From contig OX597831.1 in the NCBI GenBank assembly GCA_951406725.2, positions 37,882,001 to 37,946,000 on the forward strand: DNA of 64,000 bases, given 5' to 3'. The stretch is from Octopus vulgaris. Its lineage: Eukaryota. The position numbers and the translations under genes are program-made. This document shows positions 9,498-20,323 of this stretch, in pieces (the first letter of the stretch is position 1; each line of letters opens with the position of its first letter). The notes beneath the pieces are model-generated. The model was not told where the DNA came from, ran no database searches, and worked only from the letters and a program-made list of their open reading frames with translations.

Positions 9498-10100
9498 TAA
9501 GGCGGGGAGCTGGCAGAATCGTTTACACGCCGGGCGAAATGCCTTGCGGTATTTCGTCTGCCATTACCTGCTGAGTTCAAATTCTGCCGAGGTCGACTTA
9601 GACTTTCATCTTTTCAGGGTCGATTAAATAAGTACCAGTTGCGCACTGGGGTCGATATAATCGACTTAATCCGTTTGTCAGTCCTTGTTTGTCCTCTCTG
9701 TGTTTAGCCCCTTGTGGGTAGTCAAGAAATAGGTATTTCGTCTGCCGCTAATATTCTGAGTTCATATTCCGCTGAGGTCAACTTTGCCTTTCATCCTTTC
9801 GGGGTCGATAAATTAAGTACTAGTTACGCACTGCGGTCGATGTAATCGACTTAATCTGTTTGTCTGTCCTTGTTTGTACCCTTTGTGTCTAGCCCCTTCT
9901 GGGTTCTAAAAAAATAGGTATTTTGTCTGCCGCTACGTTCTGAGTTCAAATTCCGCTGAGGTCGACTTTGCCTTTCTTCCTTTCGGGGTCGATTAAATAA
10001 GTACCAGTTACGCACTGGGGTCGATATAATCGATTTAATCCATTTGTCTTTCCTTGTTTATCCTCTCTATGTTTAGCCCCTTGTGGGCAATAAAGAAATA
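9498..10100 (+). mobile_element. Tandem array (3 units) of SINE-like family D
   Basis: Repeated ~195-bp unit GGTATTTCGTCTGCCG..GAGTTCAAATTCCGCCGAGGTCGACTTTGCCTTTCATCCTTTCGGGGTCGATAAA..AAGTACCAG..TTTAGCCCCTTGTGGG..AAAGAAATA. Confidence 0.85.
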
Positions 10101-10287
10101 AATATAATATTACTTTCAAAGACCTGACTTATAATTCAGATTGTATAGTACATACAGGGTCAGTGTCGGTCCAGGCTTACCATGCATGTCACAAGCGTTT
10201 GAAAGCAGGATAAAAAATTTTTCAAAGACCCCTGAGTGTAGTCCATGTATGCAAGTATGCAAGTCACCCGTCACTAAGCTACCGATG

Positions 10288-10505
10288 TATACTCTTTTAC
10301 TATTTTACTTGTTTCAGTCATTTTGACTGCGGCCATGCTGGAAACGGCCTTTTGTCGAGCAAATTGACCCCATGACTTATTCTTTGTAAGCCAAGTATAT
10401 ATATATCGGTCTCTTTTGCGATGTTGGGGTACACACACACACAAACATATACACAAACACACATACACACATACATACATACATACATACATACATACAT
10501 ACATA

Positions 10506-10538
<33 letters not shown>

Positions 10539-10550
10539 TATATATATGTA

Positions 10551-10603
<53 letters not shown>

Positions 10604-10737
10604 GACGAGCTTCTTTCAGTTTCTTTTGGCCCGGGGCTATAGTAGAAGACACATTCCCAAGGTGCCACGCAGTGGACTGAACCCGGAAACATGTGGTTGG
10701 TAAGCAAGCTACATACCACACAGTCACTCCTGCGCCA
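10288..10737 (-). mobile_element. SINE family A, full length
   Basis: Head to tail similarity to 13757-14205. Confidence 0.85.
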
Positions 10738-11206
10738 ATATTGAAGGAAACTTTCACCGTTTTGTGTCGATACATCATGGCCTGACACCAATCGCGTAGC
10801 ATTAAAGAATGACGAAACAAACTCCGACTGCCTAATCGTTGACCCAACTTGTTAACACAGATGGTTCCCATTTTATTGACCCCGTAAAGTAGAAAGGTAA
10901 TGTATACTTTACTGGCAGTTGAAATCAGAACAAAGAGAACCGGAATAATCGATTTAATCCATTTGTCTTTCCTTGTTTATCCTCTCTATGTTTAGCCCCT
11001 TGTGGGCAATAAAGAAATAAATATAATATTACTTTCAAAGACCTGACTTATAATTCAGATTGTATAGTACATACAGGGTCAGTGTCGGTCCAGGCTTACC
11101 ATGCATGTCACAAGCGTTTGAAAGCAGGATAAAAATTTTTCAAAGACCCCTGAGTGTAGTCCATGTATGCAAGTATGCAAGTCACCCGTCACTAAGCTAC
11201 CGATGT

Positions 11207-11424
11207 ATACTCTTTTACTATTTTACTTGTTTCAGTCATTTTGACTGCGGCCATGCTGGAAACGGCCTTTTGTCGAGCAAATTGACCCCATGACTTATTC
11301 TTTGTAAGCCAAGTACATATAATATCGGTCTCTTTTGCGATGTTGGGGTACACACACACACAAACATATACACAAACACACATACACACATACATACATA
11401 CATACATACATACATACATACATA

Positions 11425-11520
<96 letters not shown>

Positions 11521-11655
11521 GACGAGCTTCTTTCAGTTTCTTTGGCCCGGGGCTATAGTAGAGGACACATTGCCAAGGTGCCGCGCAGTGGGACTGAACC
11601 CGGAAACATGTGGTTGGTAAGCAAGCTACATACCACACAGTCACTCCTGCGCCAA
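11207..11655 (-). mobile_element. SINE family A, full length (duplicate unit)
   Basis: Duplicate of 10288-10737. Confidence 0.85.
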
Positions 11656-12545
11656 TATTGAAGGAAACTTTCACCGTTTTGTGTCGATACATCATGGCCT
11701 GACACCAATCGCGTAGCATTAAAGAATGACGAAACAAACTCCGACTGCCTAATCGTTGACCCAACTTGTTAACACAGATGGTTCCCATTTTATTGACCCC
11801 GTAAAGTAGAAAGGTAATGTATACTTTACTGGCAGTTGAAATCAGAACAAAGAGAACCGGAATAATATCAGCGGGAATTACATCCAACTTGCTACCGACA
11901 ATACCAATTGCTCACGTGTATTATGCCTGAACTGCTACATAAATAGTTGGATAGAATAAGAGCACGGATGAAGAAATAAGAAGAAAGCAATAGAAAGACA
12001 GGAAGGAAGAAACTAAGAGAGAGGTGCACCACTAGAAAAATATTCAGTTCTTTAGATTTGTTTTCAGTTTAGAAAACCATTGAAACAGTAAGAAAGAATA
12101 CAAGTCGAAATGAGAAAAAAATAAAATGGCAAAAATCTCTTGTCTTCATGGAATTTTGTATAGAATGCTTAAAATAAAGAACACTCTAGCGAGAACAGAT
12201 ATGTCTGCTTCTCAATGATTTATTTAAGTGAGATAGTTCTACAGACTGTTGTGTGTACCTGGTATGGCAGCCATTTGTTAAATTTCCTCCATGTTTCAAT
12301 AAAAAAAGGAACTCTCCACTATTTGAAGGATGTATTTGTCGGTAAAAAGATGCCAGAAGGGAAATAAGAGAACAACGAACGTTTTAAATTGATGTTTGAA
12401 GGAAGACAGTGAAATGTATAGAAACTTTTTTTCCAACTTTTTTTTCTCTCTGGATATTTGTTTTTCTTTTTTTTTCAAAGAAATAATTGCATATAGGTGA
12501 ATAGTTATGTAGATAAGCTAATGAATAGCTACTAAAAAAACACAA

Positions 12546-13756: not shown

Positions 13757-14205
13757 TAGGCACAGGAGTGGCTGTGTGGTAAAGAGCTTGCTTATCAACC
13801 ACATCATTCCGGGTTCAGTCCTACTGCGTGGCACTTTGAGCAAGTGTTTTCTACTATAGCCTCGGGCCAACCAGAGCCTTGTGAGTGGATATGGTAGACG
13901 GAGACTGAAAGAAACCCGTGATATATATATATATATATACATGTGTGTGTACTTGTTCGTGTGTGTGTGTATGTGTTTGTGAGTATTTGTGTTTGTGTGT
14001 GTGTGTTCCCCCACCGTCGCTTGACAACCGATACTGGTGTGTTTACGTACCCGTAACATAGTGGTTCGGCAAAAGCGTCCGATAGAATAAGTACTAGGCT
14101 TAGAAAGAGTCAGTACTGGGGTAGATGTCTTCGTCTAAAGGCGGTGCTCCAGCATGGCCGCAGTCAAATGACTGAAACAAGTAAAATAGTAAAAGAGTAA
14201 AAGAG
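13757..14205 (+). mobile_element. SINE family A, full-length reference copy
   Basis: A box TGGCTGTGTGG, B box GGTTCAGTCC, internal (TA)/(TG) microsatellite and a 3' (TAAAAGAG)n tail. Confidence 0.9.
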
Positions 14206-14790
14206 CATGTTGTCCAAAACAATGTTCACAGGACTCACCCAAATCTCCGCTCTGATTCCCCTTCACGTCACCCTTACTAAGACCCTTCGCATAAGTCATC
14301 ACCATCGACATCACCACCACCAGTTCAACGCATCAACTACCCTTACTACGATCCTACGATCACCACTATCATGCATGGTCACGAACATTACCATCCCTGC
14401 TACAATGCACCATTATATATATCCACCAACACAACAGCAGCCTGCAATAACTCACCCACAAACGCATCACGCTCTTTAAGCATAGATCCACCACCGTCAT
14501 CTCTACCACGCCATGTCCAACATGTTTTCTGCTCCACCAAGTAACACAACACCACAAACGTCTCCTCTACTATCACCATCACTACCACAGTGTATCCCCA
14601 CACATCCACAAACACATAGAGAGCCCACCATGATGACACAGCTATACCATTCTCATGAAAAATAAATCCACCACCTGCATCGATCGCTATAAAACCACAT
14701 CATGTCCGCTTATACATTCGCCTCCACCATATAACATCATCCCAAGCAGCATCACCGCAGCTACTATCACCCCCACCGCAATTCTCATAA

Positions 14791-15020
14791 ATGATCGGCA
14801 TTATCAATCTAATGGCGAACCGTTGTCCAACAGAAGGACAAACTAAAGCCATAGCAGAGATAATTCTCTTCCTTAATTTGCTAATTTCAGAGATAATAAA
14901 TTACATTTATTTACGTTATGCAAATGAGGTAATCACATTATCTATGCTGCGACCAATTTATAAAGGAATTGGATTGGTTCTGTTCAATGAAAGAAATCTG
15001 GGAATTAGACCATTTTAGAC
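14791..15020. promoter_or_regulatory. Triplicated non-coding element, copy 1 (candidate enhancer)
   Basis: Aligns with 18050-18265 and 19291-19510. Contains octamer ATGCAAAT (14918-14925), TTAATTTGCTAATT, CCAATTTATAAA and CTGGGAATT. Confidence 0.45.
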
Positions 15021-15554
15021 CGCCTGATGTATATCTTCCCCTCGCTTAATAACATCAGATCAACCGACCCCGAAATTTGTCACCACGTTTAATACTCGCC
15101 GACACCGGTTTATATAATTTCATTCTGACTGTTGTGGTCGTTAGTCTGGTTGCAGCAAGAGAAATACCTACCCCTCCCATTCCTCTTCCTCTTCCGCCTC
15201 CTCATCATCATCATCGTTGTCGTTGTAATCGTCGTCATCATCCCCATCGACGTAGTTCTTGTCATCGTCGTCATAAACGTTGTCAGCGCCAGCGTCACAA
15301 TCGTCGACATCATCGTTATCATCATCATTGCCACAATCTTTATCCTCGTCCTATTCTTCGTCGACATCATCCTTGTATAATCTCAGCAGTTGTTGCGTTA
15401 ACAATATTTATATTAGTATGTGCTGGAGGGCGACAGACGGCTAAAATAGCGACATATCGCTTGGAATTGCCTCACTGAGTTCAGATTCTACCGACGTTGA
15501 ATTTAGCTTTCATTCTTTAGAGATCAATAAAACAACTACTATTTGAGCACTGGG

Positions 15555-15792
15555 TGGAGGCACATGATCTAGGGGTTAGAGCAGCTGACTAGCGATTGAG
15601 GGATCGCAGGTTCGAATCTCAGACCGGGCGATGAGTGTGTTTATGAGCGAAACACATAAGCTCCATGCGGCTCCGGCAGAAGGTAATAGCGAAATTCTGC
15701 TGACTCTTTCGCCACAACTTTCTTTCGCTCTTTCCTCCTGCATCTTGCAGCTCACCTGGGACGGACAGGCGTCCCGTCCAGGTGGGGAACCA
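15555..15792 (+). mobile_element. SINE family B copy (3'-truncated)
   Basis: Matches 802-1040. Confidence 0.85.
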
Positions 15793-15794
15793 TT

Positions 15795-16960
15795 ACGGAA
15801 TCTTTAGCACGCCGGGAAAAAGGCTTAGCACCATTTTGTCCCTTTCTAAATTCTAAGATCAAATTTCATTCATCCGTCTTTTCGCTCTGAGTAAAAACGC
15901 CGCTGCGAACGACTTTAGACTTTATCCTCTCAGAGTCGATAAACTGTGTACCACTTGAGAACTGGAGTTGCTGTAATCGACTCACCACTTTCCCCCATAT
16001 GATGGCCTTCTGCAAAATCCGAAACCAATGTTAATATTACTATAAGGCGGCGAGCTAACGGAATCTTTGGTGCGCAAGGCAAAATGCTTAGTGGTACTTC
16101 GTCTGTCTTTTCGTTCTGAGTTCAAATTCTGCCTTTCATCCTTTTGGGGTTGATAATTTAAGTACCAGTTACGTACTGGTGTCGATCTAATCGTACTGGC
16201 CCCCTCCCCCAAAACTTCAAACCTTGTGCCTAGAGTAGAAAAGACTATTACTTTAAGACAGTGAGCGGACGGAATCTTTAGAACACGGGAAAAAATGCTT
16301 AGCGGTATTCCCACCATCTTTACGTCTTCAGTTCAAATTCTACCGAGGGCCACTTTGCCTTTCTTCCTCTCGGGGGTAAATAAAACAAGTAACAGTGGGC
16401 TCTGTGGTCAGTCTAACCGACTTACCCTCCCCTTAATATTGCTGGCCTTGTGCTAAAATTAGCAAGGACGACTATTTGTATTACTGTTTATTATATGAGT
16501 AGTTCTGATGGCGGCGAGCTGGCCATATGTCCAGCACGCCGTACCAGAGGCTTAGCGGCATTTCGTCCCCCTCTACATTCTGAGCTCTAATTCCATTCAT
16601 CCGGCCTTACGTTCTGAGTACAAATGACGACGAAGTCGACCTTAAAATTGATATTTTCAGACTCGATAGACCATGTGTCAGTTGTGCAGTAGTGTTTCTG
16701 TAATCGACTCACCGGTTTCTACTACATTGATGGCCATCTGCAAAATGTTAATATTAGTATAATTCGGTGAGCTGGCAGAATACTAAGCCCGTCGAACAAT
16801 ATGCTTATCGGCATTTTGTTCCTCTCTACATTCTGAGCTCAAATTCTGCGTTTCACCATTTTGAAGTCGATAAAATAAGTACCAGTTGAGCACAGGGGGA
16901 GATTTAATCGGCTTGGAGCCCTCACCCAAAATTGCTGGCCTTTTGCTAATATTAATAGTT
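15795..16960 (+). mobile_element. Old tandem cluster of about 5 family D-related units
   Basis: Repeated GGCGGCGAGCT..GAATC..AGCACGCCG heads with D central domains; 15805-16075 and 16533-16785 share diagnostic variants. Confidence 0.75.
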
Positions 16961-16984
16961 CTAGTAGGAATTTTATTTTTCAAA

Positions 16985-17050
<66 letters not shown>

Positions 17051-17070
17051 CAGCAGCAGCAGCAGCAGCA
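16985..17070. repeat. (AGT)n(AGC)n microsatellite
   Basis: Read directly. Confidence 0.95.
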
Positions 17071-18049
17071 TTAATAAGCTTGGTGAACTACAATTAATTA
17101 TACATACAGGAAATAGACAATACACACCATTACGAGTTGTCCACGAACCGCTACCCCACCGACATCAAAACCAAAATCCTAAAATTGAAGAGACCCGCTG
17201 AATTATGGCGGGTGGTTGAAGTTTTGAAACCTTCACTCCTTATCGCGACTTTAAAATCCCACTAAAAACAGTCTAGTGCTTATATAATGCTCTTGAGCAA
17301 TTAATTACTATTACTACGTAAATCACAACCACAGACATATACTGCATGCGCCCAACCATACCCACCACCATCAAAATCACAATAATTACGCCCTTTGCCA
17401 TCATCACCCCTTTCTCATCGTCCATCAACTCCACCCATGCACCACGTTACCCATCCTCAGTTCACGTTACCCTTAATAACCGCATATCCAGCATCATGCA
17501 ACCGCTAGATCTATCCAACAACATTGCCAACACATATTTCTCAAACCAATACCAGATTAACACCTTAGCTCACCCCCACTACAGAACCCTTATCATCGGA
17601 AAAACCACTACCTCACCAGCGCCTTGACTATACGTCATCTTAAACTACATCACCACTGCAACAAGAACACTGACAGCATAATAATCCAACAAGAAACCAT
17701 ATTGCACCTACCATCACCTCCGTCGCCATCATTTACTATATCACATTTTTATCATATTGCACATTGCCGCATCATCACTGCCACCACCACCACCATTCCA
17801 ACTGGAACCACTAATGCCGCCGCCATATCATTATGTCCTGCACTACTACACAGCCAGCCATTAAAAGCACAGCCTCTAACACCTTGTTATCTCAGTGATC
17901 ACTACCGCAGCCATACCTCGCCCAACCAGCAGGTTTTTCCTCTTCTCTCTTCATCAACACCAAACATCCGATCTCGTTACCCACCAATTTATGTAACTCC
18001 CACCTGCAGAAACATCAAAATTTCCCCCACCAGTCCACCCAAACAATGT

Positions 18050-18265
18050 CGATGGTTTACAATATTTAGACAATGAACGGTTGTTCAACATAATGACAAA
18101 CTAAACTAAAGCATTATTAAACACAATTCTCTACGTTAATTTGCTAATTTTCCTAAATTACTTTCATTTAACGTTATGCAAATGAAGTAATTATATAATC
18201 TATGTTGTAGCCAATTTATAAACGAACAGGAATTACTGTAATATGAAATGTACCTGGGAATTAAA
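18050..18265. promoter_or_regulatory. Triplicated non-coding element, copy 2 (most diverged)
   Basis: Retains GACAAACTAAA, TTAATTTGCTAATTT, GTTATGCAAATGA (octamer 18176-18183), CCAATTTATAAA and CTGGGAATT. Confidence 0.45.
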
Positions 18266-18588
18266 ATATGTTCATGGCCGCTTTCATAATATCTTAAGTA
18301 TGTTTATCCTCACTGGGATAACGGGCAATAAAGTTAATCCGCTTGGCTACTTATCTTTTCTTTAACAAGTTGTGGTGTTATCATAATATTGCGTTGCTGG
18401 TTCAACAGTCAAATATGACGATTAGCATTTAGGCCGTGAAGAACACTGGTTGCTGGAATACAGTGGTGCCCTCACACCATCGGTGCATCACGCACAATAC
18501 TTTACGGAAGGATCGTGTCGCCGAAGGTTTTCTCTCGTCTTTAAATTCCGCATCACTTGGTTTCACACGAGTAAATCGATCTTAATTA

Positions 18589-18734
18589 TACAAGGGAATG
18601 CTGAAAAGTTCCTGGCTTTAAGGATATCGCGAAAGCCCTCGTTGAAGGCCTAAAAATCTAAGTTTTTTGCAGAGCTTTGAAAAACTGAAGGACCGCTACA
18701 ATAAAAACCACCAAATTTTCAGCACCAACTCATA
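18589..18734. mobile_element. mariner-derived MITE
   Basis: Terminal inverted repeat (TIR) TACAAGGGAATGCTGAAAAGTTCCTGG; same family as 44986 and 48257. Confidence 0.65.
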
Positions 18735-19290
18735 TGTAAATCCACAAACGAAAAGTGTGTTAGGGCTTTGTACCCTTCTTATATCAGAATCTCGTCAACA
18801 TAATCACTCCCACTGTCTGCCCAAACAACTGCATGTTGATCATCGTTCGGGTCATGTAAAATACTTCTGGAACATATGAAACACTTGTAGAATTCGTACG
18901 TTAGAAATAAAGCAAAATGGTGCCGATATCACCACCGCTAACACACCAAAACCTTTCCGACAAATCCTTCACTGTTACAACCGATATTACACAACATGAA
19001 TCATAAACACATAAATGTCACACCACCACCACCACCACCACCACCACCATCACCACCACCACCACCATCACCATCACCACCATCCCACCATCACCATCAC
19101 CATCCTCACCACCACCATCACCATAACCGCTACCACCACCACTATCACCATCACCACCACTACCTCTAACAATAACATATTCTGAGATAATCACATTATA
19201 TTGTTGCCAATTTATAACCATTACCACCACCCACTTCACCGTCACCTCTATCAACAACACTACCACCAACCACCAGCGCCACCATCGTTA

Positions 19291-19510
19291 ATGGTCGACA
19301 TTATCAATCTAATGGCGAAAAGCTGTCCAACATAGGGACAAACTAAAGCCTTAACGGAAACAACTTGTTTCCTTAATTTGCTAATTTCAGAGATAATAAA
19401 TTACATTTATTTACATTATGTAAATGAGGTAATCCCATTATCTATACTGTTGCCAATTTATAAAGGAATTGGATTCGATCTGTTCTATGAAATATTGCTG
19501 GGAATTGGGC
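19291..19510. promoter_or_regulatory. Triplicated non-coding element, copy 3
   Basis: Essentially gap-free alignment to copy 1 with a 46-nt identical core; octamer variant ATGTAAAT at 19418-19425. Confidence 0.45.
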
Positions 19511-20323
19511 CCTTCTCGCCCATTTGATGTAAATCTCCCTTTCATTCGTAATATCCTTATCTTAAGTATCCCTAACTCCATTACGATATCAGCTGAAAAA
19601 CTCTGCCCAACTAATTTCTGCTTAATTTACAGTGTTGGGTCGCTTGCTTAACGGATACCTATTTCATTATCACTTAACCCATAAAAGAAGACTGGATGCC
19701 TTGTATCAGAACATGAACGCACGCAGGCGGTCCACCTCATCTGAAGTTCACTTTTAAGACGTTGTTTCACAAGAGTTACAAGGGACATGACGATAAGTTT
19801 GCAGTTGTATGCAGTCACTCTTTATCTGAGTGACAGCAGCGTAGAAGCTCATACAAGTTTTGAGCTGTAGAACGAAACATAATGATGGCTTGATTAAAGT
19901 AAGTTATATAAAATGAATTCTACGTGGGCCATGTGGTGGTGAATGTGGATTTCTAAGTGCTGGGCCAATTCAAATAAAACCTAGTAACAAGCGTATTAAC
20001 AGTAATAGTAGTAACATTTGTAGCAGCAAGAGCAGCAGCAGCAACAACAGCAATGTGGCTGTGCATTTTACCTCTTCCACTCCCCCAGTTTGGAATGTTA
20101 TTCTCATTTTTTTAGCAGCTTTATTTGCCAACTTTAAGCTACATAAAAAACTATCAGCTTCTCGAATGTCTTCGCAACTTCGATATAGGAGGAAAACGAG
20201 TTACACATGATACTAATAAATCATGACCTTATTCTATACCGTTCAATTCTTGTTCTTTCTTATTTTCTAAGCTTACAAACTTCCTACACTCGGAATCCCG
20301 GATCCACTTTCTCTCTCACTCTC

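Follow-up and report, generated by a model that had tools for sequence, protein, structure and literature searches.

Genome analysis of a 64-kb stretch of Octopus vulgaris DNA (C18:37882001-37946000, hereafter the window; the assembly comprises 2.8 Gb in 227 contigs) led to three diverged copies of one non-coding element, all located within 4.8 kb. The copies occupy a single locus, diverge in a block-wise manner, are constrained across species, share no reading frame and are established in a gene-poor setting. Locally duplicated and slowly evolving, they are likely to represent a long-range enhancer, a reading drawn from sequence data.

Three copies of one element at a single locus

The window is AT-rich and crowded with microsatellites and short dispersed repeats. 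Copy 1 is located at 14769-15039 (core 14817-15007), copy 2 at 18037-18295 (core 18075-18263) and copy 3 at 19269-19539 (core 19317-19507). Copies 1 and 3, which we designate type A, were delimited by alignment, blastn and profile envelope. Copy 2 (type B) is the most diverged and differs from the other two by indels of 5, 6, 1 and 2 nt. Alignment, blastn and profile scan agree that all three lie on the same strand, and the order and orientation of the original prediction were recovered; the length of ~230 bp given there was roughly right, although the profile envelopes are a little longer (~260-270 nt, with a core of ~190 nt). Copies 1 and 3 present 82% identity without gaps over 271 nt (blastn E-value = 5e-74 in the window). 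Copy 2 presents 74% identity with copy 1 over 197 nt and 71% with copy 3 over 189 nt by blastn, or 72 and 69%, respectively, over 252 aligned columns. The corresponding Jukes-Cantor distances are 0.21 (copies 1/3), 0.35 (copies 1/2) and 0.40 (copies 2/3). Additionally, a 35-nt relic of a fourth copy was detected by alignment on the + strand at 19183-19217 (blastn E-value = 4e-5 with copy 3; profile E-value = 0.1-0.3). It starts immediately past the octamer and runs as far as the CCAATTTATAA block, does not contain the octamer itself, and had been overlooked in the original prediction. The spacer between copies 1 and 2 harbors dispersed SINE-like (short interspersed element) repeats of very high read depth at 15475-16945, outside the element, and the second spacer also contains inserted repeats at about 18460-18820.

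Each copy is preceded, as had been noticed before, by a low-complexity tract on the + strand, which is C-rich and G-poor. The tracts ahead of copies 1 and 2 are degenerate and span 14200-14768 and 17290-18036 (approximate starts), and the one ahead of copy 3 is located at 18900-19268 and includes a (CAC)n array at 19021-19164. The C content is 0.36-0.37 and the G content 0.08-0.09 over the 500 nt before the copies. Applying a criterion of C ≥0.35 and G ≤0.10 in 500-nt segments to the region that was read continuously (1.664 Mb, C18:37.08-38.75 Mb), qualifying segments make up 0.36% in this orientation, and 30 tracts were found in both orientations together. Three qualifying tracts begin at 14198, 17288 and 18756, directly upstream of the copies and in the same orientation. 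The tracts hardly align to one another. The flanks had been described as not alignable, and this holds downstream, where the alignments of flank pairs do not exceed those of shuffled sequence (p = 0.055-0.445); upstream, however, two of the three pairs reach somewhat higher scores than shuffled sequence (p = 0.005 and 0.01), a difference that can be put down to low complexity. Because each copy is preceded by such a rare tract, the duplicated unit is probably the tract plus the element.

The five predicted blocks are present in the same order in all three copies. Invariant columns amount to 159 of 280, 54 of which fall within runs of at least 8 (permutation p = 1e-4), and their clustering holds on the 252 gap-free columns (p = 3e-3). 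The divergence is thus block-wise, as had been proposed, and not uniform, the pattern that had been named as speaking against the proposal. The longest run identical in copies 1 and 3 is indeed 46 nt (14869-14914, equal to 19369-19414) and holds the invariant 15-mer TTAATTTGCTAATTT, found at 14873-14887, 18136-18150 and 19373-19387. A TATGYAAATGA block (14917-14927, + strand) carries the octamer inside an imperfect inverted repeat, and three of its nine matches in the 1.664 Mb are these copies. The octamer itself is located at 14918-14925 and 18176-18183, and the variant ATGTAAAT takes its place in copy 3 at 19418-19425. Further downstream lie the invariant blocks CCAATTTATAAA (14953-14964, 18211-18222 and 19453-19464) and CTGGGAATT, which ends the core (14998-15006, 18254-18262 and 19498-19506). 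In copy 2 the GACAAACTAAA block carries an internal 5-nt duplication. The conserved blocks are short AT-rich words of binding-site size.

Concerning copy number, copy 1 and copy 2 (the latter at E-value ≤10) as DNA queries each matched only these three places in the 2.8-Gb genome, although such searches skip very common words, and a two-block pattern led to the same three places in the whole genome. A looser pattern gave six matches across the genome (the three copies and three with unrelated spacers; one in the control) and no distant paralogue. A profile scan of the 1.664 Mb around the locus detected only the three copies and the relic, and nothing further was found in 27 more distant 10-kb samples, these being the full span of the scan. 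A dispersed family of similar age is hence excluded, and very old dispersed relatives may exist. The proposed local tandem amplification agrees with a total of three matches genome-wide, and the many dispersed copies that would have spoken for a transposon did not appear. A miniature inverted-repeat transposable element or SINE, recognizable by dispersed copies with terminal repeats or target duplications, was rejected on the basis of the genome searches and of the profile scan, with its three copies and relic. Matches of the two-block pattern in metagenomes (three loci) all fall in bacterial reading frames with no wider similarity and were attributed to chance. Regarding coding capacity, the 75-codon frame of copy 1 meets a TAG at codon 15 in copy 3, as originally noted, and has no Pfam match; a shared protein-coding frame is excluded by the four indels and by stops, many of them in copy 2.

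Slow evolution of the element in related organisms

Public sequencing runs of six organisms contain the stretch, and contigs of four runs were aligned to 14300-19700. For runs X14 (organism E) and X20 (organism F), pieces free of the element show 10-13% difference (42/407 and 47/350, respectively). An X20 contig at 18096-18370, three quarters of which is copy 2, has only 7 differences in 275 nt, in contrast with two flank-rich pieces, the 47/350 above (Fisher p = 5e-7) and one with 37/449 (p = 0.002). A two-rate Poisson model was fitted to the difference totals per contig, given their element and flank lengths, after dropping pieces with dispersed repeats; it used five of the eight listed pieces for X14, four of eight for X20 and five of eight for X8, and X7 was not included. 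The fitted rates were 0.000 for the element against 0.114 for the flanks in X20 (p = 1.5e-6; 95% upper bound 0.023) and 0.001 against 0.107 in X14 (p = 0.005; 95% upper bound 0.058). Element rates of 0-0.1% beside about 11% in the flanks of two related organisms support the purifying selection that had been proposed.

Run X13, examined at a 96% cut-off, reaches depths of 15 (copy 1 bin) and 18.9 (copy 3 bin), compared with 2.1 for copy 2; immediately past copy 3 the depth is 12.7, and the remaining non-repeat bins range from 0 to 3.8. Its piece at 19391-19609 (copy 3) carries 6 differences in 219 nt, and a 52-nt contig matches 14869-14920 with zero differences at about double depth, as would be the case if that organism had both A copies with this block in common. 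Contig breaks at 14891 (X14 and X20) and at 19391 (X14) likewise point to both A copies. Judged from sequence, all three copies predate the split from these relatives. Since the paralogues are 0.21-0.40 apart and the orthologues only a few percent, the comparison suggests that the copies are much older than that split. As a separate matter, X13 is filed under organism A, but has only 0.09 of words and is diverged like organism E; its species is possibly mislabelled.

These distances also bear on whether the triplet is a neutral relic, either an old palindromic non-autonomous transposon or a simple duplication, kept alike by a low local mutation rate or by gene conversion. Weak dyad symmetry (opposite-strand profile matches, E-value = 0.2-3.6) and the location in AT-rich DNA poor in CpG would suit such an origin, and conversion could explain why copies 1 and 3 share an identical run as long as 46 nt, which exceeds expectation (p = 0.002). 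Nevertheless, the absence of dispersed copies from the DNA search, with its blind spot for very common words, argues against a transposon, and each copy retains 6-7 CpG. Moreover, orthologous divergence is several-fold below that of the flanks, and this includes copy 2, whose distance from the other copies is too great for conversion, making a neutral relic very unlikely. A substitution rate well below that of neutral flanks across species, in a sequence that is non-coding and neither a dispersed repeat nor a known RNA gene, is what would be expected of a conserved non-coding element (CNE).

Motif content and transcribed alternatives

The POU octamer of the original prediction is exact in copies 1 and 2, and copy 3 presents only the variant ATGTAAAT. 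Catfish Oct1 has been reported to bind both ATGCAAAT and ATGTAAAT (PMC1800861). As an exact octamer occurs in ~2.7% of 260-nt segments here, it is weak evidence without conservation. An inverted WGATAA pair flanks the octamer (14891-14943), and further sites are located at 14801 and 14858 in copy 1. In total, WGATAA is found four times in copy 1, three times in copy 3 and not at all in copy 2 (expected 0.49), and TAATT words number 5, 7 and 3 in copies 1, 2 and 3 (expected 1.25). Positional conservation counts more than such motif labels.

The arrangement of these words also recalls core promoters, namely three in tandem on the + strand belonging to an unannotated long non-coding or giant-intron gene, with the octamer followed by CCAAT/TATAAA ~40 nt on and by a conserved ATGAAA ~28 nt beyond the TATA-like word. 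Octamer, TATAAA (14959, 18217 and 19459) and a conserved block ~28 nt downstream do follow each other in all three copies, conservation ends ~45 nt past the TATA-like word, and octamers are known from H2B, snRNA (small nuclear RNA) and immunoglobulin control regions (PMC1800861). However, TATAAA is expected 0.6 times per 265 nt here by chance. No conserved transcript body, Rfam match or conserved downstream T-run was detected, no gene body was found in the region, and the short ATG-AAA-NNN-NNN-TGG-GAA frames do not change in the manner of coding sequence (6 synonymous and 10 non-synonymous changes; p = 0.16). Promoters of this kind are therefore unlikely. The frames in question stand at the core end (14987, 18243 and 19487), where all three copies share an in-frame ATG AAA NNN NNN TGG GAA TT (M-K-x-x-W-E-L).

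The imperfect inverted repeat around the octamer could alternatively form a structured RNA, such as a pre-microRNA-like hairpin or an intronic double-stranded element. A central stem is possible in all copies (z = -1.2 to -3.4 in chosen segments of 61-67 nt), its arms measure ~22 nt in copies 1 and 3, four inner-stem substitutions keep or improve pairing on the + strand, and the minus-strand alignment fold reaches z = -2.35 (p = 0.025). On the other hand, the covariation term is unfavorable (+3.68 and +1.9), the structure conservation index is 0.44 and 0.49, and the + strand fold gives z = -1.6 (p = 0.085). The core of copy 2, though equally constrained, folds at background level (47th percentile), the best-conserved blocks fall outside the hairpin, and the dyad score has p = 0.04-0.30 once the choice of centre is allowed for. 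Rfam gave no match in the cores (E-value ≤10) and none at gathering score; three weak C/D-box matches were obtained (E-value = 0.97-7.5), one of them touching the last 20 nt of the copy 2 envelope. The hairpin arm words do not appear in the readable supplement text (24,410 and 41,240 characters) of an octopus microRNA paper (PMC9699675), a comparison that involved no microRNA catalogue. A structured RNA is thus quite unlikely, and a pre-microRNA or other structured non-coding RNA with a stable hairpin in all copies and covariation was not found. Run X9, whose RNA origin is a guess, covers the C-rich tracts and the start of copy 3 and not the cores of copies 1 and 2, and is evidence neither way.

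Finally, AG / 38 nt / GTAATC occurs in copies 1 and 3 (14891-14928 and 19391-19428) and could mark a duplicated 38-nt micro-exon or splicing-control element in a giant intron. Copy 2, however, does not have the AG at the matching place and is nevertheless constrained to the same degree; a length of 38 nt is not divisible by three; and in the sole open frame the two differences that separate copies 1 and 3 each change the residue. As no host gene was found either, a micro-exon would be most surprising.

A probable long-range enhancer in a gene-poor neighborhood

The enhancer reading accounts for the triplet as follows. The invariant blocks would serve as binding sites for transcription factors (predicted types: POU, homeodomain and GATA), through which a distant gene would be controlled. 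The unit of C-rich tract and element would have been duplicated in tandem, an early duplication giving rise to types A and B and a later one to the second A copy, resulting in the order A-B-A; a further A-like copy would have decayed to the 35-nt relic, and repeat insertions would later have widened the spacers. The copies may act as additive or partly redundant ('shadow') enhancers, the input of copy 2 being different owing to the absence of the GATA sites that both A copies carry. In a bolder version, which we put forward only tentatively, an ancient enhancer cassette was amplified in situ in the octopus lineage, and selection would retain all three copies because they divide the work: types A (POU and inverted GATA) and B (POU without GATA) would control, in different cells, a gene at a distance of more than 0.8 Mb. 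The C-rich tract would be a functional part, its composition and orientation having been kept while its sequence turned over. If true, this would provide a natural set of variants from which the grammar of a cephalopod enhancer could be read.

Several observations weigh against the enhancer. The constraint estimate is indirect, being based on totals per contig for a subset of pieces; X14 and X20, having many differences in common, do not count as independent; the conservation covers only ~11% neutral divergence, that is, close relatives; and the close run X8 presents no contrast (0.014 vs. 0.018; p = 0.81). WGATAA is presumably a GATA-type site, and the motif labels other than the octamer were picked after the sequence had been viewed. 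The folding of copies 1 and 3 surpasses that of 98% of matched segments, a property that an enhancer does not need. No target gene was found in the 1.664 Mb, and no tested DNA-binding family maps near. Of 1187 coleoid CNE candidates, just 12 are reported to overlap squid peaks of accessible chromatin (ATAC, assay for transposase-accessible chromatin; PMC9023564), so conservation appears to predict open chromatin poorly in cephalopods.

The nearby developmental or neural gene of the original prediction was not recovered. Open reading frames (ORFs), Pfam and an exon finder led to no cellular gene within 0.8 Mb on either side, small exons being liable to be missed by these means, and searches for DNA-binding families did not supply one. 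The long or high-scoring frames of the 1.664 Mb are retroelement or transposase remnants. Twelve of the top 150 ORFs of the inner 1.264 Mb match Pfam, all with domains of mobile-element type; for the outer 400 kb and the 27 samples of 10 kb each (36.09-39.56 Mb), the assessment consisted of scoring and visual inspection. The exon finder returned four candidates at a score of at least 11 in the 1.664 Mb, none of them gene-like. In a control it called 15 of 29 loci (12 at a score of at least 11), and since it detects about half of them, it could overlook a gene whose exons are small and few and whose introns are giant. Homeobox (best 150 of 174 candidates), HMG, bHLH, forkhead, nuclear-receptor and TALE searches gave no match within several Mb. 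The closest homeodomains on C18, among the same best 150 of 174, are at 11.3 and 67.3 Mb; for the HMG box the closest match is at 7.3 Mb, and bHLH gave a weak one at 45.3 Mb; forkhead, nuclear-receptor and TALE had no match on C18. Searches for zf-C2H2 (best 150 of 27,344 candidates) and I-set (best 150 of 559) were uninformative for the locus. The gene-poor setting fits the regulatory domain of a developmental gene, although the domain-gene search found none within 0.8 Mb, and we regard the stretch of more than 1.6 Mb as probably a regulatory domain. Work on gene deserts in cephalopods is reported to be just beginning to yield data (PMC10658181).

The proposed mechanism is not new, as duplicated enhancers are common in fly and mouse. 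An origin of shadow enhancers by duplication has been described for 18.3% of the sets in fly and 33.9% in mouse, and 62% of similar fly pairs have no homology in their flanks (bioRxiv 10.64898/2026.06.26.734851). As described in that source, several homologous elements of enhancer size occur per locus, similar in their body and mostly not in their flanks, and copies can keep or rewire their binding sites; the octopus triplet presents this sequence homology at one locus. The fly and mouse sets come with measured activity and assigned genes, whereas the triplet is known from its letters, and beyond what is given for those sets each octopus copy is also constrained across species. Duplicated CNEs (dCNEs) of vertebrates are likewise non-coding, constrained, old and detectable as paralogues within one genome, but they adjoin paralogous genes after genome duplication (PMC2781166), and no gene duplicate was seen for the octopus copies. 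A dCNE of the vertebrate type is ruled out, as all copies lie in 4.8 kb and the genome searches gave none elsewhere. The CNE candidates of coleoids and squids are also non-coding, gene-distal and >95% alike across >100 nt between species; they are defined squid-to-squid or squid-to-octopus, whereas our element was compared among close relatives only, and it might stand in the lists of that study (PMC9023564). Rumpless chickens also bear a tandem duplication of a conserved enhancer, which is recent and breed-level (PMC13696352), in contrast with octopus copies that are 18-31% diverged and common to related organisms. Literature searches led to no description of the triplicated octopus element.

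Few cephalopod regulatory elements have been characterized, and squid-octopus alignments are reported to give only ~1200 candidates (PMC9023564). Three diverged and separately constrained paralogues mark functional bases without the need for distant genomes, and the triplet lends itself to a testable reporter series of modest size, in which A is compared with B and the octamer and GATA sites are mutated.

Apart from the triplet, several features of the neighborhood were recorded. No cellular exon was recognized in at least 1.66 Mb (C18:37.08-38.75 Mb), and the 27 samples, reaching out to 36.09 and 39.56 Mb, likewise showed only mobile-element frames. At C18 ~38.481-38.482 Mb (L120:4656-6275), ~0.58 Mb from the element, two adjacent + strand frames have QRICH1, DUF3504 and phage-integrase Pfam matches; we take them to be a tyrosine-recombinase element (Crypton-like) or a domesticated gene. 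At C18 ~38.666-38.671 Mb (L162:1-4554) lies a young-looking non-LTR (long terminal repeat) retroelement with open frames of 625 and at least 873 codons. In the window, 10270-10980 and 11190-11910 represent a recent local duplication of a repeat-plus-microsatellite segment (10403-10600 vs. 11322-11519: 98% identity over 198 nt, with near-identical frames), and a common SINE-like repeat is present at 9548-10100 in three head-to-tail copies of 184 nt. On another contig, at C6:40.513-40.530 Mb, a 2990-codon frame and its neighbors form an unusual array of more than 10 tandem matches to the nuclear-receptor-type C4 zinc finger.

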